Source: Thermoprotei archaeon
GTDB taxonomy: Archaea; Thermoproteota; Thermoprotei; Gearchaeales; WAQG01
Length of the DNA stretch: 64,000 nucleotides
NCBI GenBank assembly: GCA_049976445.1
Contig: JBMFIF010000001.1
Coordinates: 24,634-88,633 of the forward strand
Reading direction: 5' to 3'
The notes below the pieces were generated by a model, which saw only the letters and a list, made by a program, of their open reading frames with translations, did no database searches and was not told the DNA's origin. Shown piece after piece: positions 2,240-64,000 of the stretch. Each line of letters opens with the position of its first letter. The stretch's first letter is position 1. Position numbers and translations under genes: made by a program.

Positions 2240-3121
2240 ATGAGAATCGCTGTATCTCAATATGTATTTCGTGTTGGTGGAGGTTTCAAAGAATTTGCTG
2301 ATCACGTAACAAGACATACTGTTAAAGCATGGCATGAGAAAGCGGAGATTATTGTTTTTCCAGAATTGATATCTCTTGAATTAATAGAAGATAAAAAATT
2401 GCTTGGGAAACCATCTATTAATTTAACTAAGATTCTTTATGATCATTACGGCAAATACGTTGAAATTTTTAGCGAACTAACAGAAAGATACGATATAACA
2501 ATTTTAGCAGGAAGTACAGTAACATTAGGTGATGATGGCAATTACTACAATACAGCACATGTTTTTAGACCTGATGGACCCATATTAAAATATAAAAAAA
2601 TACATTTGCACTTGTTTGATAAACAGATGGGGCTTCACGCAGGTAATGATATATTAACATTTAAACATAGTGAAATAATTATAGGAACTGGAATATGTTA
2701 CGATGTAGGATTCCCAGAAATCTTCAGAATAATGAGATTGGATGGTGCTGAAATATTTTTAATACCAAGTTTAGCACCTGGAAGAGGAGCATATAACTGG
2801 ATAAGATTTTCTTCACATGCAAGAGCAATAGAATCACAAGGTATTGTTGCACTTTCAAGCGGAATAGATCCTACAGGCGAGTTATTCGGATATAAACTGA
2901 GAGGGAAATCAGCGATCATTACAACAACTGATTATAATCCAAATGGATTTATAATAGAAGGTAATGAAGAAGATACAGTACTTATAGCAGATATAGATAT
3001 GACACATTTAAGAGAGATACAAGAAAAAACTGCTGCACCAGTTTTAAAAGATCTCAACTTTAAAGTATATAAAGAACTATGTGATAGAAAATGGAGCCCC
3101 AACTTTCCGCATAATAATTAA
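2240..3121 (+). CDS. Carbon-nitrogen hydrolase (nitrilase superfamily amidohydrolase)
   Basis: The catalytic E-K-C triad context is present: IIVFPELIS (Glu), KKIHLHLFD (Lys), GTGICYDVGFPE (Cys). Confidence 0.8.
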   Translation: MRIAVSQYVFRVGGGFKEFADHVTRHTVKAWHEKAEIIVFPELISLELIEDKKLLGKPSINLTKILYDHYGKYVEIFSELTERYDITILAGSTVTLGDDGNYYNTAHVFRPDGPILKYKKIHLHLFDKQMGLHAGNDILTFKHSEIIIGTGICYDVGFPEIFRIMRLDGAEIFLIPSLAPGRGAYNWIRFSSHARAIESQGIVALSSGIDPTGELFGYKLRGKSAIITTTDYNPNGFIIEGNEEDTVLIADIDMTHLREIQEKTAAPVLKDLNFKVYKELCDRKWSPNFPHNN

Positions 3122-3344
3122 AATCTCATGCATCAATAATATACCTAATCTATTGCATATTTTTGAAAAGACTAAACTAAATTAAGAAAAGAGTTGAGAC
3201 GTTTTAGAAACACTAAAAAACTTATTAGAGAAAAAGAATATTTGCCCGTATTCAAAACGAACACTGAACGTGTTCTCTAAGAAAGCTTATAAAAGAATTA
3301 GGAGCGTTTGGTAAAAGTGAGAATGAGTTAATTGAAACCTAAAA

Positions 3345-3746
3345 TTATTCCAATATTTCTACTATTATCTGATCACCATCTTTTAAGTTAAAATATGAAC
3401 GCAAGTATACAGGCGCTATAATTTCTAAAACACTTTCATCATAGTATGTTTTATCCGCCCTTATTACTGCGCCAAACATTGATCCGTTAATTTTTGCTCT
3501 GTAGCATGATACGCCAACATAAAAACGTTTACCATCAAAAAATGAATCCAGACGTATTTGTTTAAATTTTTTAATTTCATTAAAAATCTGAATACCTGTA
3601 TTTTTATCAATCTTAATATTGAGCGTACCTGGATATGGTGTGAAACCTAATTTTTCTTGTATTTGTTTTACATAATTTGTCTGAGATAGATAATAAGCAC
3701 CTTCACCTAATCCGCTAAACACCGTACCCTTTACTATAATGCCCAC
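3345..3746 (-). CDS. ribK: Archaeal CTP-dependent riboflavin kinase (MJ0056 family)
   Basis: It is 133 aa with the PYPGTLNIKI motif and overall similarity to archaeal RibK (GxGEGAYY...PYPGTLN). Confidence 0.7.
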   Translation of the reverse strand: MGIIVKGTVFSGLGEGAYYLSQTNYVKQIQEKLGFTPYPGTLNIKIDKNTGIQIFNEIKKFKQIRLDSFFDGKRFYVGVSCYRAKINGSMFGAVIRADKTYYDESVLEIIAPVYLRSYFNLKDGDQIIVEILE

Positions 3747-3811
3747 TTCACATCAATTAAAACATAAAATCTCCCTTATTTAAGTTTTGGATGTTTATAA
3801 CCACAATAAAA

Positions 3812-3826
3812 GAAATTTATATTTGT
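3812..3826 (+). promoter_or_regulatory. TATA-like box (aaatttatat) about 25 nt upstream of the tRNA-Pro(CGG) 5' end
   Basis: An AT-rich TATA-like octamer sits at the expected archaeal spacing from the mature tRNA start. Confidence 0.35.
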
Positions 3827-3845
3827 TTCTTCTATATTATTAAGG

Positions 3846-3938
3846 GGGCCGTAGTCTAGTTTGGTCTAGGAAGTTTAAAAAACCTAGAGTACCAGGCTCG
3901 GGCCCTGGAGATCGCCGGTTCAAATCCGGCCGGCCCCA
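3846..3938 (+). tRNA. tRNA-Pro (anticodon CGG) with an ~18-nt non-canonical intron in the D-stem 3' strand
   Basis: Acceptor is GGGGCCG/CGGCCCC plus discriminator A, followed by U8. D-arm is GUCU-AGUUUGGUCUA-GGAU once the intron AGUUUAAAAAACCUAGAG is removed. Anticodon arm is CCAGG-CUCGGGC-CCUGG (CGG). Variable loop is AGAUC and the T-arm is GCCGG-UUCAAAU-CCGGC. The intron forms a CUAGG...CCUAG hairpin across the junction. No CCA is encoded. Confidence 0.75.
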
Positions 3939-4031
3939 CTATATTAATGGTCGTCAGCAGCTCAATTAATCTAATTAAGAACAGGTTTCTCTAAGTAGTA
4001 GGACTTATATATTTTTTAAACGATAAATAAC

Positions 4032-5867
4032 TTGACCATTATGAAAAAGGCATATTATAGAACAATTATCAGTAGTATTATATTATTACTCATTATAATA
4101 ACATTAATAAGTAATGTTAATGTAGCCGCAGGAAAAACAGTGACTGCAGTGAGACCTACATTATTACAAAGATTTTATATGAATTCTACAAGTACTCAAT
4201 CAGACTTTAATGACCCATTTTTTGCTTTTGGAAGGGACCCGAGACCAAATCTTAGTACTAGTGGATATTGGAGTTGGCAAGATTATCCGTATAGTGTACC
4301 ATATGTAACTCCGCAAACTATTAAAATATTCACAAACGTTGCATCAAATGATATAACAAAGACGGGATATCCTCCATTAATAACAAGTAAAATTGTTAAC
4401 TTACCTTCAGGTAGTTATTCTAAAATATTGTTAAGGGTTGATGTACAATTAAAGAGTGTAATGCCTAGTAGATTAGCAGTAAATTATGATAGAGCACTCT
4501 GGATATTTGTAGATGGGGTACCACTTCTCATAGGGACAACAGCACAACGATATAGTTATACTGTAATATCGGATGTAACATTCTTATATCATCTTTTAAC
4601 TGGTACTCATAACTTTACGTTTGTACTTATAAATTATGTGATACCAAGTCTTGGACTTACTGGATATTTTATAGCAAATGTTACATTACTTTATTACCCT
4701 GGTGAAAAACCATCAAACATTGCGACAGACGTAGTACCATTATGGTCAAGTGGAATAAATAATTGGAGGTCTGGAGTTGCTTGGGCTGTACTTACATCAT
4801 CGAAGAATATAGCATTACAAAACGTGACAATACCAGGGAACATAACAAAAGCATATCTATTGCTTTATACAGAAGGCGCTTCGTATGATGAGTTTTGGTG
4901 GTCTAACATACCTACAAATCGTGAAGTCTTGGTTTATAGTGATAGTAAGTTAATAGCAGTATCACAACCGTTTCCAATAATTTACACAGGTGGTATAAAT
5001 CCGTTCATGTGGAGACCAGTACCAGGAATAAACACTTATGCATTCCAACCATTATTAATAGATATAACACCATATATACCATTCATCATCGGAACTCATA
5101 CCATAAAAGTCACTATAACTAATAACCAAAATTATTGGCTAGTCGGAGGAGCATTGCTACTTACCAAAACAAATACAACAGTAAGCTATAGGTTCTTAGG
5201 CGACAGCCCACAACTAATAGCAAATAAAACAACAAGCACAACACCAACTACAACTATATTCAATAATACAATGACATATACGAACACTGCATCACTAAAT
5301 ATTACAATAGGCTCACAAACAGTCACTTACAAAACAGAGTATAAGCTCAATTTGAACGCTATTCAATCATATAATGATATATGGTGGAATTCAACAGTAA
5401 CTCAAACATGGTATTATAAAAGTAACTGGTTAAATAAAACAGAATCCTCACGATCGTATTCATCATTAAACGTGAACTACGGTGAGATAATACAAGTATA
5501 CGGCGATATAAGTAAAGCATCGACATCGAATCCTGTACCAGCAACCTTTAGCCTTATAGCTGATCTTAACCATAAATATGTAACAGAAACAGAGCACACA
5601 AATGCAACATCACAAGTTGCTACAGTTCATGCAGAACACGTCACATCAAATTCAATATTAGCAGGAACATTAGTATTCATAAGCCCAACAGGAGCAATAA
5701 TAACAGGTATCACAACACTTAGTAGTGTAACATCAAAATCGTTAAAAACTGAAGAAACACAAAACAGTATAAAATTTGTATCATTCATGAGAGATACAGT
5801 TGGAGGAAACTATTATCCACCACTTACGTATGAAATATTCGTAGATGTGATCTCAGTAAAGTGGTAA
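4032..5867 (+). CDS. Membrane-anchored, Thr/Ser-rich extracellular glycoprotein (hypothetical surface protein)
   Basis: There is an N-terminal TM/signal anchor (IISSIILLLIIITLISNV). The protein has very many N-x-S/T sequons and Thr-rich linkers (NKTTSTTPTTTIFNNTMTYTNT), typical of Sulfolobales surface glycoproteins. Confidence 0.5.
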   Translation: MTIMKKAYYRTIISSIILLLIIITLISNVNVAAGKTVTAVRPTLLQRFYMNSTSTQSDFNDPFFAFGRDPRPNLSTSGYWSWQDYPYSVPYVTPQTIKIFTNVASNDITKTGYPPLITSKIVNLPSGSYSKILLRVDVQLKSVMPSRLAVNYDRALWIFVDGVPLLIGTTAQRYSYTVISDVTFLYHLLTGTHNFTFVLINYVIPSLGLTGYFIANVTLLYYPGEKPSNIATDVVPLWSSGINNWRSGVAWAVLTSSKNIALQNVTIPGNITKAYLLLYTEGASYDEFWWSNIPTNREVLVYSDSKLIAVSQPFPIIYTGGINPFMWRPVPGINTYAFQPLLIDITPYIPFIIGTHTIKVTITNNQNYWLVGGALLLTKTNTTVSYRFLGDSPQLIANKTTSTTPTTTIFNNTMTYTNTASLNITIGSQTVTYKTEYKLNLNAIQSYNDIWWNSTVTQTWYYKSNWLNKTESSRSYSSLNVNYGEIIQVYGDISKASTSNPVPATFSLIADLNHKYVTETEHTNATSQVATVHAEHVTSNSILAGTLVFISPTGAIITGITTLSSVTSKSLKTEETQNSIKFVSFMRDTVGGNYYPPLTYEIFVDVISVKW

Positions 5868-5944: not shown

Positions 5945-6255
5945 CCCCCGAATTTATTCATAGAGATGAAGGACTCTAAAAACTATTATGAGAGGATCCC
6001 TCCACCTCCAGGTCTGCGCCCGGTAAGATTTTCCCTCGCTAATGCCCACAGAGCTTAAGCCTAATACTGGGCGTGGCATTGAGTAGTTCCGGCCGCAGGA
6101 GTCCATACTAAGGAGACATACATACGTGCTTCTAAGCTCTGTGGGCATAACCTAGTGAGCTGTTTTTGGCTCCTGGTTGTAGCTAGTCGGCCTTTGCATC
6201 GATACCATTATCCTAAGCTTTCGACTGAAGTCAGGAGCGTCTGACTTGTTTAGGA
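5945..6255. ncRNA. GC-rich (~50% GC) structured non-coding island of unknown identity; candidate stable RNA (RNase P RNA or another ~300-nt RNA); strand unresolved
   Basis: GC content rises sharply against the AT-rich background. A long imperfect helix pairs 6043-6059 (GCCCACAGAGCUUAAG) with 6129-6148 (CUUcUAAGCUCUGUGGGC) and encloses about 70 nt. A perfect 7-bp hairpin AAGUCAG-GAGCGU-CUGACUU lies at about 6228-6248. TATA-like boxes are present on both flanks. The only overlapping ORF (5954-6148) is weak. Confidence 0.35.
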
Positions 6256-6267
6256 ATTTTATAATAG

Positions 6268-6383
6268 TGGGGCCGCGGGGAGTTTCACCCTTTTCAGGGT
6301 TTTGAACCCCGGATCACCAGCGTTCCGGGAATAGGGGTATTCACCCCAGGCTGGCATCCTAATCCAGGCTGAACGACGGCCCC
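6268..6383 (-). tRNA. tRNA-Pro (anticodon GGG) with two introns: a canonical 37/38 intron (21 nt) and a T-loop 59/60 intron (19 nt)
   Basis: The minus-strand RNA reads as follows. Acceptor GGGGCCG, then U8 C9. D-arm GUUC-AGCCUGGAUUA-GGAU, then G26. Anticodon stem CCAGC / loop CUGGGG[UGAAUACCCCUAUUCCCGGAA]C / stem GCUGG. Variable loop UGAUC. T-stem CGGGG, T-loop UUCAAA[ACCCUGAAAAGGGUGAAAC]U, T-stem CCCCG. Acceptor 3' strand CGGCCCC plus discriminator A. After intron removal every arm is canonical. The D-arm and anticodon loop are closely related to the tRNA-Pro(CGG) at 3846. Confidence 0.7.
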
Positions 6384-6483
6384 GACTAAATTATTTATCT
6401 CGTAATAGTATTTAACTTTTATTGAGATTTACCTAAGATAGGTCAAGTTTTTAGCAATTCATAATATAAAAAATTAAAGATTT

Positions 6484-8475
6484 TTATTTTCCTTTAAATT
6501 TTGGTTTTCGCTTTTCAAGAAATGCACTCACACCTTCTACTACATCGTCTGTGCTGAAAAGCAGTCCAAAGAGGCTCGCTTCATATGCTAAGCCTGTCCA
6601 TATATTTGATTCAAGTCCAAAGTTTATTGCGTATTTGGCTGCCATGAGGGCCATTGGTGGTTTTTCTGCTAGCTTTAGTGCAAATCTGCGTGCTTCTTCT
6701 TCAAGCTTTTCTGGTGGTACTACATTGTTGACTAACCCTATTTTTAGGGCTTCATTTGCTGATATCATATCACCTGTGAAAATTATTTCTTTAGCCTTGC
6801 TACTTCCTGTTAATCTTGATAATCTTTGTGTCCCTCCTGCGCCTGGTATGAAACCAAGGTTTATTTCTGGTTGTCCTAGCTGTGCTGTTTCGGAGGCTAT
6901 TCTTATATCACCACTCATTGCCATTTCGAGACCTCCGCCCAATGCGTATCCATTTATGGCTATTATTATTGGTTTTGTGTAATATTCTATTTTGTTTAGA
7001 ATCTCTTGGAATTTTCTAGAAAATATTGCTGCTTTAACTGGGGTAACTCCCATAAAACCTGTTACATCAGCTCCTGCACTAAATGCTCTTCCAGAACCTG
7101 TTAATATTATGACTCTTATTCTTTCATCTTCTTCTATTTCATCTAATATTGTGTTTAATTCTTTTAGCATATCTATGTTTATTGCGTTTAAGCGTTCTGG
7201 TCTATTGAGTACTATCCATGCTAATGGTGGTTCGAGTTTTAATAAAATTGTGGAAAGCTTTCTTTCTTCAACGACGCCATATTCGTAAAATCCTTTTCCT
7301 GTTTTTCTTCCAAGTTTTCCTTCGTTAACCATTTGTTTAAGTAGTGGATCGGGCGTGTATTCTTCCCATCCTGTCATGTTTTTGAGGTTTTCGAGTGTAT
7401 TTACTACACGGTCTATACCGTATTCATCTGCATATTCTAGAATACCTTTGGGGTATCCTAATCCTAGTTTGCATGCTTTATCTATATCATCTCTGCTAGC
7501 TATTCCTTCTCTGAGTAACCATGATGCTTCGTTTATTGCAGGAGCAATTACCATTAGTGGATCTACTTTTTCTGCTTTTTCTTTTGGTATTTCTGGTCGA
7601 GCATATTTACCTGGTGCTGGATAGGTGTAAAAACCTTTTCCTGTTTTCATTCCTAATTCGTTTGCTTTAAATTTCTCTTCAAATAATGGACATGGATGAG
7701 CCACGTATCCCCGTTCGCTCATTGCTTTAAACACGAAGTAGAAAACATCTATTCCACTATAATCAGCCAATTCGAATGCTCCCATAGGGAAACCTAATTT
7801 GTAACGTACTGTCGCATCTACTTCAATAATATCAGCTTGTTTGTTAGCGACTATCCAGCATGCAGCATTAAGTAATCTTCCTAGTATTCTATTTACTATG
7901 AAACCAGGTACATCTTTTTTCACGATAACTGGTTGTTTTCCCAACTTCTTTGCTAATTCATACGTTATTTTTACCGTATCATCACTAGTTTTTTGACCCT
8001 TTACAACTTCAACCAATGGCATTAACGGTGGTGGATTAAAGAAGTGCATGCCGACAACTTTTTCAGGTCTATTTGTAGCATTGGATATCTCTGTTATAGG
8101 GAGACTGCTTGTATTTGTAGCGAGTATTGCATGTGGTGGTAAAATCTTGTCAGCTCTGGAGAATACATCTTTTTTGAGATCTAATTTTTCAGGTACTGCT
8201 TCTATCATAAAGTCTGCGTTCTTAACAGCTTCATCAAATGATAACGTGGTATGTATTCTAGAGAGGATGGAGTCAATGTTTTCTTTAATTTGCCCTTTTT
8301 CATATAATTTTCCAACACTCCATCTAATTTTTTCTATTGCGTTTTTTAGAAATTCTTCGGCTATATCGGTTACCCAAACTTCGTATCCGGCTAATGCAGC
8401 TACCTCTGCTATTCCGTGTCCCATTGTACCAGCGCCTATTACTGCAATTTTTTTAATTTGTTCAATACTCAACAT
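6484..8475 (-). CDS. Bifunctional 3-hydroxyacyl-CoA dehydrogenase / enoyl-CoA hydratase (FadB-like fusion)
   Basis: The N-terminal Rossmann motif IAVIGAGTMGHGIAEVAALAG marks a 3-hydroxyacyl-CoA dehydrogenase. The C-terminal half (LNRPERLNAIN...GGGLEMAM) is a crotonase-fold hydratase. Confidence 0.85.
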   Translation of the reverse strand: MLSIEQIKKIAVIGAGTMGHGIAEVAALAGYEVWVTDIAEEFLKNAIEKIRWSVGKLYEKGQIKENIDSILSRIHTTLSFDEAVKNADFMIEAVPEKLDLKKDVFSRADKILPPHAILATNTSSLPITEISNATNRPEKVVGMHFFNPPPLMPLVEVVKGQKTSDDTVKITYELAKKLGKQPVIVKKDVPGFIVNRILGRLLNAACWIVANKQADIIEVDATVRYKLGFPMGAFELADYSGIDVFYFVFKAMSERGYVAHPCPLFEEKFKANELGMKTGKGFYTYPAPGKYARPEIPKEKAEKVDPLMVIAPAINEASWLLREGIASRDDIDKACKLGLGYPKGILEYADEYGIDRVVNTLENLKNMTGWEEYTPDPLLKQMVNEGKLGRKTGKGFYEYGVVEERKLSTILLKLEPPLAWIVLNRPERLNAINIDMLKELNTILDEIEEDERIRVIILTGSGRAFSAGADVTGFMGVTPVKAAIFSRKFQEILNKIEYYTKPIIIAINGYALGGGLEMAMSGDIRIASETAQLGQPEINLGFIPGAGGTQRLSRLTGSSKAKEIIFTGDMISANEALKIGLVNNVVPPEKLEEEARRFALKLAEKPPMALMAAKYAINFGLESNIWTGLAYEASLFGLLFSTDDVVEGVSAFLEKRKPKFKGK

Positions 8476-9694: not shown

Positions 9695-9747
9695 ATATTA
9701 TCTCCTCCACATAAATACTTGTCTATACATGTTTAAAAACTATTCGT

Positions 9748-9808
9748 TTACTGGTTCGAGACTGTCCACTTATTATGTGATAGTGATGTTGTGGTTGATA
9801 GCTTATCT
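9748..9808. mobile_element. 61-bp MITE-like element, copy 1: 11-bp terminal inverted repeats GAGACTGTCCA/TGGACAGTCTC, flanked by 8-bp direct repeats ACTGGTTC
   Basis: The element has perfect 11-bp TIRs and a conserved core (cttattatgt...gatgttgtggttgat). It is flanked by an exact 8-bp duplication at 9740-9747 and 9809-9816. A second, ~88% identical copy with its own 8-bp duplication lies at 28671-28731. Confidence 0.6.
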
Positions 9809-10387
9809 GGACAGTCTCACTGGTTCTAATTCGTAAGTTAAATATCCCTCAGGTTCACGTTTTGTTACTACAACTCTAACTTTCATTCCTACTCTTAATT
9901 TTTTAGGGTCGGTCTCTCGTACCCATGCTGTAATGTTAATTCCTTCTTTTAGCCTAGCTATACCTACTGTATAATCATCGTAGTGTGAAAAGCTGTTTGG
10001 TTTTACGTTTATTATTGTGTAAGTGAGTAGTTCTCCTTCATTACTTAATTCAACCCATTCTACGTCTGATTTTCTGCATTTGGGACAATCAATCTGTGGC
10101 GGAAAATAGAGTGCCCCGCATTGTTTACATTTTGTTGCATAAAGTTTTCCATCCATTAATCCATCGAAGAATTTTCTGATTTTATCAACGCTTATTACAT
10201 ATTTTAATGTTAATTCTCGTTGGTCAATCCATTGTGCAGCTCCGCTTTTCATGTCTGGCACAACTGGTAATCCCGTTGATTTCTTTATACTTTCAACAAA
10301 TTCGTTAAACTGTTTTGTTGCTTCTTCGGTCTGTTCCTTCTGCGTTTTCTTTTTTTCAACTTTCTGCTGAGTGCTCATGATATTCAC
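9803..10387 (-). CDS. DUF35 Zn-ribbon/OB-fold protein (thiolase partner) with extended N-terminus; last codons supplied by the MITE-like element
   Basis: The Zn-ribbon CKQCGALYFPPQIDCPKCR is followed by an OB-fold. The gene overlaps the downstream thiolase by 4 nt. The terminal codons (V)RLSR* are encoded by the right arm of the 61-bp element. Confidence 0.75.
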   Translation of the reverse strand: MNIMSTQQKVEKKKTQKEQTEEATKQFNEFVESIKKSTGLPVVPDMKSGAAQWIDQRELTLKYVISVDKIRKFFDGLMDGKLYATKCKQCGALYFPPQIDCPKCRKSDVEWVELSNEGELLTYTIINVKPNSFSHYDDYTVGIARLKEGINITAWVRETDPKKLRVGMKVRVVVTKREPEGYLTYELEPVRLSR

Positions 10388-28617: not shown

Positions 28618-28670
28618 ATCCTATAGTTAAAGAAAGTTAGTATTTTTAAATATTAATGGATTACTACACA

Positions 28671-28731
28671 GAGACTGTCCACTTATTATGTAGAAATGAT
28701 GTTGTGGTTGATGGCCTATCTGGACAGCCTC
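28671..28731. mobile_element. 61-bp MITE-like element, copy 2 (TIR GAGACTGTCCA / TGGACAGCCTC), flanked by 8-bp direct repeats ACTACACA
   Basis: It is ~88% identical to the copy at 9748-9808. An exact 8-bp duplication is present at 28663-28670 and 28732-28739. The element is inserted about 54 nt upstream of the pfkB-family kinase start, distal to its TATA-like box. Confidence 0.6.
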
Positions 28732-29144
28732 ACTACACACTGAAGTTAAAGTTTTAAGAAAAGTCTGATTATTTTTACTTACTGTAATTATTTTTAATGT
28801 TTTATACCTTATTTGGAAAGTGCTTGTTGCATAATTCGTGCGTGGTTTTGTGGAGCGTTTCGCAGTCTCCTCCAATCTCATAATACTTACCGGTAGGATT
28901 TGATGTATGCTAGTTAGGAGTGTTCATTAAAACTGTGAGAAAACATCATCAAATTCTTAACTCATAAGAATACTCAGCATAGAAAGCACACCAAAAACGC
29001 ATCAGAATTATGCAACAAAGCATTGGAAAGAATACTCTTTTTATTATATGATAAGATTTGAAGTATTATTCCTAATGTTTTATTTGTTTTGTTGTCTTTT
29101 ATTTTTGTTCTGAACATAACGAAAATGTTTTATTTTAGGATTAT

Positions 29145-53875: not shown

Positions 53876-54531
53876 GTGGTAATAATATAAGCGAAATAGC
53901 TGAAAAGCTTACTAAGCTTGATGCTCAATTGGTTGAAATACGATTAGACAAAATACAGAATTTATATGAGGTTATAAATAAGGCTGCTGAGCTGGTGCAT
54001 GAATTTTCATTTAAGCATGATCTTATAGTTACTGTAAGGAGCAGCATTGAAGGAGGATTTTTCTCAAATGGTGAGAAGGCACGTTTACGTATTATTTCTG
54101 AGCTTATTAGAGCAAAACCAAAATATGTTGATATAGAATTACGTTCACCGATAGCTAAGGATGTTATAAAATTAGCTGAAGAGAATGGTGTCAGTGTTAT
54201 TTTGTCATATCATAATTTCTCGGAGACACCAAACCTTAAAGAATTACGGTTAATCGCAGAGCGAGGTCTTAGACTTAATTCCTCGTTAGTAAAAATTGTT
54301 ACAATGGCACGTAGTTATTATGATAATATTACTATGTTAAGACTCGTATCAGAAACTCCAGGTAAAGTTGTGGGATTTTGCATGGGAGAACTAGGCATAC
54401 CCTCACGCATTCTTGCGCCATTCTTTGGAGCACCGTTCACTTATGTATCTTTTGGTGAAGAAGCTATAGCACCAGGACAGATTGACGGAACGGCGGTGAG
54501 GGAAATATGGAAATTAATGAAACTCATCTAA
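53848..54531 (+). CDS. aroD: 3-dehydroquinate dehydratase, type I
   Basis: 227 aa with a type I DHQase fold and catalytic Lys region; operon context. Confidence 0.75.
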   Translation: MSRKMCLSISGNNISEIAEKLTKLDAQLVEIRLDKIQNLYEVINKAAELVHEFSFKHDLIVTVRSSIEGGFFSNGEKARLRIISELIRAKPKYVDIELRSPIAKDVIKLAEENGVSVILSYHNFSETPNLKELRLIAERGLRLNSSLVKIVTMARSYYDNITMLRLVSETPGKVVGFCMGELGIPSRILAPFFGAPFTYVSFGEEAIAPGQIDGTAVREIWKLMKLI

Positions 54532-60928: not shown

Positions 60929-62020
60929 TTATATTAACGTTATGCTTTTGAAATTACCCTCTTTAACAAGAATTGGCCCTGCATCTGGTAGTCTTATCCA
61001 ATAATATCCTGCTTCTACTGCATTGTATTTCTTGGTGAGTGGTATTTTTTCGTTAAATGCTAATTTGATATAGATCCATGGCATATTACAACCTAAATGT
61101 GCATAAAAGTTATTTGTTGTATAAAATCTTCCTGCATTTATTTCTGTTACTGATGGTATGCCATTTTTGTTAGCTTTCATATCAACACCGAATACTCCAT
61201 TAGGTTTATCATCAATTGCTTTTATTGCTTCTGTTCCTATTTTATTCACTAGTTCATTATGAACAGTTACTGCAACCGATGGTGTTGATGTTTGCCCACT
61301 TGGTGTAATGTTCCCAAATAGGTATTCTATTCTTTTTCTTGCCTGTGAGACTATCAGCTCTCCATCTTTCCAAATGCTTTGAAAAGCAAATTCTTCGCCA
61401 GGAAGATATTCAGATATCATAAAATCTTCGTATACTAAGCCTTCCTTTTTATTCCAATAATTTATCCATTCTATAATCTGTTCTGGAGAATAAGCAGGTA
61501 ATGATGCTCTTGATCCTGCTCCTTTTAATGCTCTAACCCAAACTCTGCCTTTTTCATCCTTTAATTCATTGTAATATTTTTTTATAGAACTCACATCTTC
61601 AATTTTATAAGAGATCGGTGCTGGAACATTCTTATTTTTAAGTATTTGATTTGTCTTGATCTTATTTTGAGTTGTTTCGATTGTTTCATGTTTTGGTAAA
61701 AATGTTTTCGCGTCGATTTTCTCTCTATTCTTGGATATCATGAACACTTCAATATCTGGTTGTGCGTGCACAAATTCTATTTTCTCCATGTGAATTAATT
61801 TATTTACTACGTCTAAGTATCTTGAATCTGTTGCTTTTGGTATGATATAAGATTTATCAGCATCAACTAGTTCTAAATGATATTTGTTAATATCTGTTGC
61901 TACAATGTAAAACTTCTCAGTAGCCATTCTTAATGATTTTATAAAGTTGATTCCTGCAGATCCTCCTGCACCTAATACAAGGATGCGCTTTTCCATACTA
62001 TGAACACTCCCTATATTCAT
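60929..62020 (-). CDS. ATP-grasp domain protein (carboxylate-amine ligase-like), function unknown
   Basis: The N-terminal Rossmann-like pre-ATP-grasp (ILVLGAGGSAGINFI) and a central ATP-grasp fold are present. Confidence 0.45.
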   Translation of the reverse strand: MNIGSVHSMEKRILVLGAGGSAGINFIKSLRMATEKFYIVATDINKYHLELVDADKSYIIPKATDSRYLDVVNKLIHMEKIEFVHAQPDIEVFMISKNREKIDAKTFLPKHETIETTQNKIKTNQILKNKNVPAPISYKIEDVSSIKKYYNELKDEKGRVWVRALKGAGSRASLPAYSPEQIIEWINYWNKKEGLVYEDFMISEYLPGEEFAFQSIWKDGELIVSQARKRIEYLFGNITPSGQTSTPSVAVTVHNELVNKIGTEAIKAIDDKPNGVFGVDMKANKNGIPSVTEINAGRFYTTNNFYAHLGCNMPWIYIKLAFNEKIPLTKKYNAVEAGYYWIRLPDAGPILVKEGNFKSITLI

Positions 62021-62048
62021 GAAATTAGACCCTAAATAAAAATAAACC

Positions 62049-62062
62049 TCTTTTATAATAAT
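62049..62062 (+). promoter_or_regulatory. TATA-like box (cttttataataatg) about 25-30 nt upstream of the 62.1 kb GC-rich island
   Basis: A canonical archaeal TATA-like octamer (TTTATAAT) lies at the right distance from the first GC-rich nucleotides (GGGGTTCGGG at about 62094). Confidence 0.35.
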
Positions 62063-62087
62063 GTTTTAACTAAGATTGTGTAAAGGT

Positions 62088-62380
62088 TAAATCTGGGGTT
62101 CGGGTTTCATTGGGCTTGATATCAAGCTATATCAAGCCCTCTCCCTTGGCATCATAGCCCTCAGGACCCCTTTTCATCGGGATCCATATCACTGGGCTCC
62201 GCCCGCCCGGGGTGACCCCAACCCACAACTCCACCCTCATCGATTCCTCCGGTTCATAGCTGTGGGGAAACCCCCGCATCCTGGCTTTCGAATGTGCGCC
62301 CCACTTGGGTCTTCACCACATACCCGCATTTGGGACGCTCTCTTGCATCACCGTGCTTCAATAAAGGAACTAAATCAACC
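62088..62380 (+). ncRNA. GC-rich (~55% GC) structured RNA candidate, ~290 nt, unknown identity (possible RNase P RNA-like or novel stable RNA)
   Basis: There is no ORF in this region. An abrupt GC island sits in AT-rich context. A perfect 11-bp hairpin GGGCUUGAUAU-CAAGCU-AUAUCAAGCCC is present, plus a GGGGAAACCCC hairpin and a GGGGUGACCCC hairpin. Short RNase-P-like strings (GGGCUCC ... GGGUGA ... AACUCCACCC) occur, but the P4 consensus GGAAAGUCCGGGC is absent. An upstream TATA box sits at the correct spacing. Confidence 0.35.
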
Positions 62381-62663
62381 CTTATAAACCTTTCTGAAAC
62401 CTAAAACAGCTCCAGAGAGGCTTATCCTTGCATTGAGATTATAACGTTTTTAATTATAGAAATTAAGATTGTTCCTTCCTTTTTAAAAGTTCAATGCACT
62501 ATTTCATTAAACTGTTCATAAAGGTCACCCAAGGAGACCTCCAACTTTATTCGTGGAGTAACTGCCTTATTCTAGAGTAGTCTTTGTATGTCATGTAAGG
62601 TTTAAGTATTCTGTTCTATAAGTAGTTGTGTAAGAAAATTTTATCATGAAAAGCTGAGACTAC

Positions 62664-64000
62664 CTATTCTAGTGTAAATTTTGCTATAGCGGTTTTTTCT
62701 TTTATCTTAAAACTGTGTTTTATTCCATTTATTAAAATGTTTTCTATGCCAGATCCATTTAAAATATGTAATTCAATATTTTTGAAAGAGGGTTTATAGT
62801 TTTTGTTTAAAATTTCAGTATCGACTATAATTTCGTTGTTATCTCGAATAATTTCTACTTCGGCTTCGAAATATTCCCCTTTCTGATATTTCAATGTTTC
62901 ACCATCGTCATCATATACTCGTGTCTTTACTTTCTTAGTAATGAATGTTTCGATTTTAATTGGATCCCAGGGTTCGTATGCATTTTCTTTAGGATCAGTT
63001 GTAAGTATTGCTGTATTTTCTCTAATAAAGATTGGTATTATTTCAAGAGAAGCTTTAACTAAATTCCAGCCATGGTTAAGTATTTCTCCGTCCCAGTAAT
63101 CATACCATTTGACTTCTGGTAAATATACAGCTCTAGCTTTAATGCCTGGAGCTAATATTGGTGCTATTAGAAGAGCTTCTCCTAGCATGAACTCATCGTC
63201 TATGTCATAGCAATTTTCATCGGAAGGAAATTCGGTTGAAAGTGTTCTCATTATAGGAAGACCTGTTCTGTGCGCATCTATAAAAAGTCTGTAGATATAA
63301 GGAAGTAGTTTATATCTAAATTTAATAGTGTTTTTAATTATTGTCTCGAATGGTTCTCCAAAAACCCATGGTTCATGCCTTCTAGCATTAATATCACTAT
63401 GATTTCGGTAAAAAGGATAAAACGCTCCTAATTGGTGCCATCTGACCAAAAGTTCTGGATCAGTATCATCGCTAAACCCTCCAACATCAGCTCCCACAAA
63501 AGGTATACCTGAAAGACCTAAGCTAAGAAGTTGAGGAATGCTAATTTCCATATGTCCCCAATCTGCTTGATTATCTCCTGTCCAGACTGCTGCAAATTTT
63601 TGAATCCCTGCAAATCCTGATCTAGAAAGTATGAACGTCCTTTTATCTTCATATACTTTTTTGAATCCTTCATATGTGGCCAAATTTTCTAGAAGCGAGT
63701 ATGCATTATGTATCTCATCGTGATGGATCATATTTCCTTCATCATCTTTATGTATAGCATTTATTTTTATGTATCCAACGTTTTTATTAACCATAGCTGT
63801 TGATATTTTTGAAATTTCTGAAATAATGTTTAAACCTACATTTCCATTACCGCTAATGATACTTGGTAATTGTTCGATAATATCTTTTAATGGGTCTATC
63901 ATTAGAAATATTGAAGGCTCATTCATATCAAGCCAAATTCCATCAATACCTTGTTTAATCCATCTAGCTATGTATGACGACCATAACTTTCTTACTTCTG
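62664..64000 (-). CDS. malA: Alpha-glucosidase, glycoside hydrolase family 31 (MalA-like); N-terminal part lies beyond the window
   Basis: GH31 motifs are present: GIWLDMNEPS (nucleophile Asp, continuing upstream of the listed Met) and AVWTGDNQADWGHM. The reading frame stays open to the window edge. Confidence 0.8.
   Translation of the reverse strand, partial: EVRKLWSSYIARWIKQGIDGIWLDMNEPSIFLMIDPLKDIIEQLPSIISGNGNVGLNIISEISKISTAMVNKNVGYIKINAIHKDDEGNMIHHDEIHNAYSLLENLATYEGFKKVYEDKRTFILSRSGFAGIQKFAAVWTGDNQADWGHMEISIPQLLSLGLSGIPFVGADVGGFSDDTDPELLVRWHQLGAFYPFYRNHSDINARRHEPWVFGEPFETIIKNTIKFRYKLLPYIYRLFIDAHRTGLPIMRTLSTEFPSDENCYDIDDEFMLGEALLIAPILAPGIKARAVYLPEVKWYDYWDGEILNHGWNLVKASLEIIPIFIRENTAILTTDPKENAYEPWDPIKIETFITKKVKTRVYDDDGETLKYQKGEYFEAEVEIIRDNNEIIVDTEILNKNYKPSFKNIELHILNGSGIENILINGIKHSFKIKEKTAIAKFTLE

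Follow-up and report, generated by a model that had tools for sequence, protein, structure and literature searches.

A GC-rich island in a Thermoprotei contig as a very probable ORF-less mini-insertion sequence with a predicted TnpB guide-RNA scaffold

A short GC-rich island lies towards the end of a 64,000-nt stretch of a Thermoprotei contig (the window, meaning the whole stretch of DNA analysed), between an ATP-grasp/PylC-like gene and a GH31 alpha-glucosidase gene, the two neighbours already named in a first-pass annotation. That annotation had described the island as an unexplained stable RNA candidate of about 55% GC, one of two GC-rich islands in the window, and its account of the composition was borne out. 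The island is 55-61% GC against a window background of 33.7%, with values of 0.575 and 0.545 in the 200-nt windows over 62100-62399 and of 0.25-0.39 on either side. Within the 64 kb, only this island and positions 5951-6400 hold at least 48% GC over more than one 150-nt window, a single window at 54351-54500 only just reaching 0.48. The perfect 11-bp hairpin and the two other hairpins read from the sequence earlier are likewise present. The features seen at the locus are as follows.

60929-62020, minus strand: ATP-grasp/PylC-like gene, one flank of the island
62052-62059, plus strand: TTTATAAT box, outside the element described below; sequence common to no homologue
62112-62139, minus strand: perfect 11-bp hairpin (GGGCTTGATAT at 62112-62122, ATATCAAGCCC at 62129-62139)
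62209-62219: GGGGTGACCCC hairpin
62264-62274: GGGGAAACCCC hairpin
62127-62279, minus strand: 50-aa ORF, a remnant of a TnpB C-terminal tail by BLASTP and tblastn
62664, minus strand: stop of the GH31 alpha-glucosidase gene, which continues past the window end; other flank of the island

Two of the features thought to mark an independent RNA gene were only partly upheld. The TTTATAAT box, taken to be the island's own TATA box, exists, but it lies 36-43 nt beyond the end of the conserved unit at 62095 and homologues do not have it; it probably belongs to the promoter region of the ATP-grasp gene. Similarly, the island holds no intact gene, as had been stated, but it does contain the minus-strand 50-aa ORF. 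Nor were the supposed RNase P-like fragments supported by Rfam, which gave zero matches in the whole window at gathering thresholds and zero matches inside the island when 61900-62700 was searched on both strands at E<=10, so that the island is assigned to no Rfam family. The island was also unmatched in phage and plasmid collections (blastn) and in two pattern scans of viral contigs.

Scanning metagenomes with a 21-base pattern taken from the island returned 13 loci; homologues are found in many contigs of hot-spring archaea, and the contigs that host them range from 36 to 56% GC. By blastn and MAFFT, the 13 loci have only the island in common (75-85% identity), set in unrelated flanks, and one contig (L009) carries two copies. 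Minus-strand similarity stops sharply at ...AATGAAACCCGAACCCC (window position 62095) in every copy; beyond ...GAACCCC, or a close variant of it, the copies diverge completely. We also noted a second family copy at L039 1312-1575 (JGI 3300019821), which is 83% identical, 5´-truncated and adjoins an IS630-like DDE_3 transposase gene. It comes from the sample that also yielded a window-identical contig (L002), so that this community, and possibly the same genome, holds several diverged copies.

The protein remnant ties the island to TnpB. The 50-aa ORF is 76% identical to residues 380-428 of the TnpB encoded in L013 (BLASTP, E 2e-24), and the minus-strand translation of 62294 to 62133 is 74% identical to TnpB residues 377-428 (tblastn, E 1e-21). 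A further remnant, seen by tblastn in frame -2, corresponds to the region of the first zinc-ribbon CxxC in the L013 and L014 TnpBs, and no additional TnpB or TnpA similarity was found by tblastn within the 64-kb window. A weak tblastn match had raised 62400-62360 as another tnpB coding remnant; this candidate was rejected, as nucleotide alignment identifies the stretch as left end and promoter, window positions 62423 to 62360 aligning with sequence upstream of tnpA in L014, where that element has its left end and promoter.

Full-length copies were found at three loci (L013, L014 and L041), with tnpB genes of 436-485 aa in which the conserved segment covers the last ~60 codons. In L013 (ORF 234-1544, core 1365-1556) and L014 (ORF 3527-4840, core 4664-4855), the segment is on the coding strand of 436/437-aa ORFs and reaches 12-15 nt past the stop, the scaffold thus overlapping the 3´ end of tnpB; in L041, the tnpB ORF spans 3501-4958 and the core ends at 4855. 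The L013 and L014 proteins score 54 and 52.5 bits with Pfam Cas12f1-like_TNB (cutoff 26.3), and 58 and 53 bits with NCBIfam guided_TnpB, below its cutoff of 100. Over 92% of its length, one of these proteins shows 38% identity to a Sulfolobus islandicus plasmid protein annotated as 'RNA-guided endonuclease TnpB family protein'. With the L014 TnpB as query, 288 relatives were obtained at E<=1e-10, mostly of 420-440 aa and with Pfam MJ0013 and TNB domains, from MAGs assigned to Fervidicoccaceae, Ignisphaera, Zestosphaera, Desulfurococcaceae, Sulfolobales, Thermoprotei and Methanomethylicaceae. The window-type tail is present in 107 of the 120 best relatives among these 288; an apparent rarity of full-length TnpBs with this tail was an artefact of a short 55-aa query, which returned short ORFs only. 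Upstream of the L014 tnpB lies a gene for an IS607-family serine transposase (NF033518, 200 bits, cutoff 110; Pfam Resolvase), and tnpA is absent from both the window copy and L041. The L014 tnpA appears, when read by eye, to be frameshifted near its 5´ end (L014 2945-3100), with MEVLRPKEVCERLSISYTTLR, then a stop, then YYVKRGYIKPVLNPGGKWRF in the +1 frame, which is either a sequencing error or a sign of an inactivated transposase.

L041, the closest full-length relative found, was reached through the C-terminal tail of its TnpB (P0163), which shows 90.6% identity to the window remnant; it is a contig of a Thermoprotei MAG with a 1.43-kb tnpB-only element at 3428-4855. Aligned with L041 and with the shorter L038 copy discussed below, the island resolves into the following parts, all read on the minus strand.

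62095-62421: whole predicted mini-element, 327 bp, no intact gene; delimited by its match to L038 and L041
62421 to 62345: left end with promoter, TATA and tnpB ATG; aligns with L041 3428-3504 (89.7%)
62388 to 62382: TATA box TTTATAA, a conserved left-end motif
62348 to 62346: ancestral tnpB start codon ATG; tnpB ATG of L041 at 3501
62345 to 62274: zinc-ribbon coding remnant, out of frame; aligns with L041 4507-4579 (89.0%)
~62339 to 62297: hairpin inside the zinc-ribbon remnant, in both MFE and centroid folds
62289 to 62095: scaffold to right end; aligns with L041 4661-4855 (91.9%)
62285 to 62095: putative omega/reRNA scaffold core, 191 nt, by covariance model; right end ...GAACCCC
62139 to 62112: the perfect 11-bp hairpin, last scaffold stem and consensus helix 8
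62094 to 62075: presumptive guide segment AGAUUUAACCUUUACACAAU, flank directly 3´ of the right end

Given that the three aligned blocks are collinear with L041, the window element corresponds to an L041-type element with two internal deletions. The larger, of ~1.0 kb, begins just past the start codon, and the smaller, of ~80 bp, takes the zinc ribbon's second half together with the final RuvC motif; overall, ~1.08 kb of interior is absent relative to L041 while both ends are kept. We conclude, with a probability of about 88%, that the island is a 327-bp non-autonomous mini-insertion sequence, running from 62421 to 62095 on the minus strand and derived from a TnpB element of the IS607/IS1341 type, which is widespread among thermophilic Thermoproteota. 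Its limits, 62095-62421, replace those of 62088-62380 first given for the island. A stable RNA fold carried on a mobile element in an AT-rich thermophile genome would account for the high GC content.

The same deleted form is found elsewhere. Positions 257-582 of L038, a 40% GC contig from another sample, are 95.8% identical to the window element over 330 nt, with homology ending at both of the same boundaries and unrelated sequence on either side. Since this locus is unrelated to the window, the mini-element has moved as a unit after the deletions had arisen. Other mini forms are present in other contexts in L008, L009 (two copies), L016, L020 and L021, the left-end motif GGTTTATAAGGGTTG preceding the scaffold by 40-110 nt in each; the motif is conserved in L008, L016, L020 and L021 and mutated in both L009 copies. 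The family also includes ~1.4-kb copies with tnpB alone, frameshifted, in L019 and L030-L037, and several members are decayed, one L009 copy (L009a) having a 32-nt deletion, L018 having lost its 5´ half and L030-L037 carrying the frameshifts.

The flanks of the window copy read ...GGATAA / element / AGATTT... and those of the L038 copy ...GTAGAA / element / TATAGC..., so the joined empty site of the window copy would read ...GGATAA + AGATTTAACC.... No target-site duplication and no inverted termini are visible at either the window or the L038 copy, which fits the IS607/IS605 superfamily. A direct repeat that seemed to flank the element, AAAGGTTAAATC / AAAGGAACTAAATC, was dismissed as a target duplication, its second copy lying inside the element, downstream of the TATA box. 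No TAM consensus was derived from ten left-end flanks, which are A-rich at -1/-2 in seven of the ten cases, with GGGGC in L041.

That the island encodes a structured RNA is very probable, judging from folding and alignment. The strand of the RNA is the minus strand, opposite to that first proposed. The minus strand folds with an MFE of -115.8 kcal/mol (z -3.25) and a centroid structure almost identical to the MFE structure, compared with -93.8 kcal/mol (z -2.56) for the plus strand. It is also G-rich, the plus strand being C-rich (GC skew -0.25 to -0.32), and structured RNAs of thermophiles are usually G-rich. In addition, the TnpB remnant is read in the minus-strand sense, and this strand carries a conserved TATA box of its own.

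An RNAalifold consensus of the family has eight helices and 41 pairs; one helix closes the structure by pairing GGGGGUU, close to the 5´ end of the core, with the terminal GAACCCC beside the presumptive guide. Pairing is kept in 95.3% of cells across 15 distinct sequences and falls to 27-55% when partners are slid by 1-3 columns. The compensatory changes that had been proposed as a check were observed: 11 of the 41 pairs are altered on both sides, compared with 3.4 ± 1.3 in shuffles, none of 500 shuffles reaching 11, in a sample of 15 distinct but related sequences from which the structure itself was derived. In helix 8, both partners differ in three of the seven pairs counted, as with G-C to A-U and A-U to G-C in L013 and L017. 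Variability across the 50 remnant codons is 0.141, 0.104 and 0.118 at positions 1, 2 and 3, with no third-position excess, and paired columns vary less (0.085) than unpaired columns (0.149); in this small and related sample, both observations favour constraint at the RNA or DNA level over constraint on a peptide.

A covariance model built from ten family copies finds one copy in the window, at 62095-62285 on the minus strand, aligned over all 192 model positions with a score of 215 bits, close to the 225-229 bits of TnpB-linked copies and well above the 134-146 bits of decayed copies. The minus-strand TATA box lies ~26 nt upstream of the beginning of the GC-rich part, and by archaeal TATA-to-start spacing we take transcription to start near 62359, about 26 nt past the TATA box. 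Thus, although the first-pass annotation was right that the island encodes a structured RNA, it erred on the kind of RNA as well as on its strand and promoter. The RNA is very probably the omega/reRNA scaffold of a TnpB, located at the transposon right end and carried here in an ORF-less mini-element. As none of the Rfam models of omega/reRNA type (HEARO, RAGATH-18 and the IS605-orfB motifs) matches, this assignment rests on position and structure.

TnpBs of archaea and bacteria use a reRNA derived from the right end of the element, and the published layout is that of a segment overlapping the tnpB 3´ end and stopping at the right end (10.1101/2023.03.06.531077; PMC8612924). The scaffold of the present family resembles the omega RNA/reRNA of ISDra2 TnpB, AmaTnpB and SisTnpB1 in being sense to tnpB, overlapping its last codons and ending exactly at the right end, after which the next ~20 nt of flank differ from copy to copy, as a guide would. 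Conserved structure with compensatory changes and thermophilic archaeal hosts are further points in common. The guide role of 62075-62094 is inferred from this known layout. Unlike those systems, the window has only tnpB remnants, the family sequence falls outside curated Rfam families, RNA-guided activity is predicted, and the TnpB clade (MJ0013 plus Cas12f1-like_TNB) scores below the guided_TnpB cutoff (58 vs 100 bits).

Elements without ORFs that often encode omega RNAs and require their use in trans have been described as PATEs (10.1101/2023.03.14.532601). Like the PATE-like IS200/IS605 mini-elements of Geobacillus stearothermophilus (Meers et al., 10.1101/2023.03.14.532601), the window element keeps both parental ends and the guide-RNA scaffold, has lost the protein gene, has copies at several loci, and would need TnpB and transposase in trans. 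It differs in being archaeal, in a parent whose complete form has an IS607-type serine transposase (L014) where the PATE parent has a Y1 transposase, and in a deletion by which the element's own promoter comes to lie ~70 nt upstream of the scaffold. IS607-family elements combine a serine-recombinase TnpA with TnpB (eLife 2018, PMC6188088); the full-length L014 copy follows this order, with an IS607-family TnpA followed by tnpB, and the window and L038 copies likewise show neither terminal inverted repeats nor a target-site duplication, whereas the window copy and L041 are without tnpA. The omega RNA of IscB (HEARO, RF02033) is also a transposon-borne guide-RNA scaffold, but the island does not match it, and the guide here would lie 3´ of the scaffold, as for TnpB, in contrast to the 5´ guide of IscB.

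The way the element would work can be proposed from these parallels. Transcription would begin at ~62359 and read through the scaffold into the flank, giving an RNA that would comprise the scaffold and the ~20-nt guide AGAUUUAACCUUUACACAAU (62094 to 62075). This RNA could act only if it were loaded in trans by a TnpB encoded in a full-length sibling copy at another place in the genome; so guided, the TnpB would cut the empty site left by excision, favouring retention of the element. Movement of the element would likewise need a transposase supplied in trans.

The same origin is compatible with an inert element, a dead deletion relic that was recently inserted, gives no useful transcription, is not used by TnpB and is drifting to decay. 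Many family members are visibly degraded, neither TnpB nor TnpA is encoded within the 64-kb window, and relatives with ATP-grasp genes 73-76% identical to that of the window are without the island, as a recent lineage-specific insertion would predict. The good conservation of the window copy may also reflect youth alone. Against this, the copy scores with TnpB-linked rather than decayed members of the family in the covariance search, its TATA box and scaffold are intact, with a 90-96% match to L038 and L041, several independent mini forms all keep promoter and scaffold, and the mini-element moved after its deletions had arisen. On balance we regard an inert relic as rather unlikely. The notion that the transcript has been co-opted by the host, the outward-reading promoter driving or regulating the downstream ATP-grasp gene on the same strand, draws on gene order: in the two nearest relatives (L003 and L005) a 339-aa gene abuts the start of the ATP-grasp gene, and in the window the mini-element occupies that place instead. 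This argument is purely positional, the AT-rich stretch with TATA-like boxes before the ATP-grasp start could itself be the promoter, and other copies of the element sit in all kinds of contexts, which makes co-option improbable.

The 50-aa ORF at 62127-62279 might instead be read as a functional small protein derived from the TnpB tail, as gene callers predict similar ORFs of 39-95 aa in many copies, the sequence recurs in 56 clusters of short predicted proteins, and a good many copies keep the frame open. Yet third codon positions do not vary in excess, the copies disagree in start, stop and length, with some ORFs running on into the flank, the segment coincides with the covarying RNA structure, and the same tail is the plain C-terminus of full-length TnpBs; we consider a functional peptide very improbable. 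The reading from which this work departed, an independent stable RNA of the host, either akin to RNase P or a housekeeping RNA of a new kind, with plus-strand transcription from TTTATAAT, accounts for a GC-rich island in an AT-rich genome, for the better-than-shuffled folding of both strands (plus strand included, at z -2.56) and for a TATA-like box at 62052-62059. It is contradicted by the lack of any Rfam match, the RNaseP_arch and type T models included (E<=10, both strands), by the position of the plus-strand TATA beyond the conserved unit, by homologues at unrelated loci that overlap tnpB on the opposite strand, by the absence of the island from the syntenic position in relatives and by the weaker fold of the C-rich plus strand, and we judge its chances to be minimal. 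The remark made with that proposal that the island could prove to be a GC-rich remnant, such as a degraded integrated element, came close to the mini-element found.

The genomic setting was approached through the ATP-grasp protein. A synteny search of genome contigs with this protein gave three loci, in which the gene order differs and none has the island; the sources are the Thermoproteota MAG PSS.bin.16 and Crenarchaeota SCGC AAA471-B05 'YNPFFA'. The closest genomes by this search are thus YNPFFA-type Thermoproteota and not Sulfolobales, the order in which a comparison had been suggested. In L003 (ATP-grasp at 2619-3680) and L005 (10022-11083), the 339-aa gene finishes at or just within the start of the ATP-grasp gene that it precedes, two further genes follow, and none of these neighbours occurs in the window.

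Elsewhere in the window, the second GC-rich island, at 5.9-6.3 kb, has no sequence in common with the island at 62 kb and shares no motifs with it beyond chance, although shared motifs had been thought worth looking for. The minus strand of this second island gives a sub-threshold match over the full HEARO model (RF02033; 45.9 bits, E 3e-8, gathering threshold 83) at 6023-6245; a PNGase-like gene (4032-5867, plus strand) ends on one side of it, a fatty-acid oxidation gene (6484-8475, minus strand) lies on the other, and no IscB-sized ORF adjoins the segment. This HEARO-like segment may be a second orphan transposon guide-RNA module, in which case both islands may have one explanation as orphan modules of this kind. 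On the plus strand, 6270-6385 is a GC-rich segment of ~115 nt with a terminal stem (GGGGCCG...CGGCCCC), directly after a TTTATAAT box and with no Rfam or tRNA assignment. A 93-nt direct repeat at 9729-9821 and 28642-28734 (81% identical) holds an internal inverted repeat, GAGACTGTCCA...TGGACAGTCTC, and could represent a further small element, repeated or mobile, or else a regulatory site common to both places. ARAGORN predicts a 95-nt tRNA-Phe with anticodon AAA at 3845-3939 on the plus strand; the Rfam tRNA model stays below threshold everywhere in the window, and the prediction is either a doubtful call or an intron-containing gene.

The element is of a kind already described, an ORF-less mini-insertion sequence bearing an omega RNA, and it differs from the described cases in its uncultured thermophilic Thermoproteota host, its IS607-type parent and an RNA outside Rfam. 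An apparent unknown stable RNA can therefore be struck off the list, with no bearing on a major open question. A larger and distinctly unlikely role is that of a successful guide-only parasite of the TnpB transposons of hot-spring archaea. If this were so, the deletions would have set a guide-RNA scaffold directly under a transposon promoter, the resulting units would spread between Thermoproteota lineages by exploiting full-length elements for nuclease and transposase, perhaps redirecting the TnpB of those elements, and in the present genome the transcript, reading outwards, might supply the ATP-grasp gene as well. As a rule for recognition, where the genome of a thermophile is AT-rich, a GC island free of ORFs can be the end of a TnpB transposon that encodes its guide RNA. 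For the family, an archaeal TnpB clade now has a defined scaffold, exact element ends, a covariance model and natural minimal promoter-scaffold units, and these could aid the design of guide RNAs for thermostable TnpBs.
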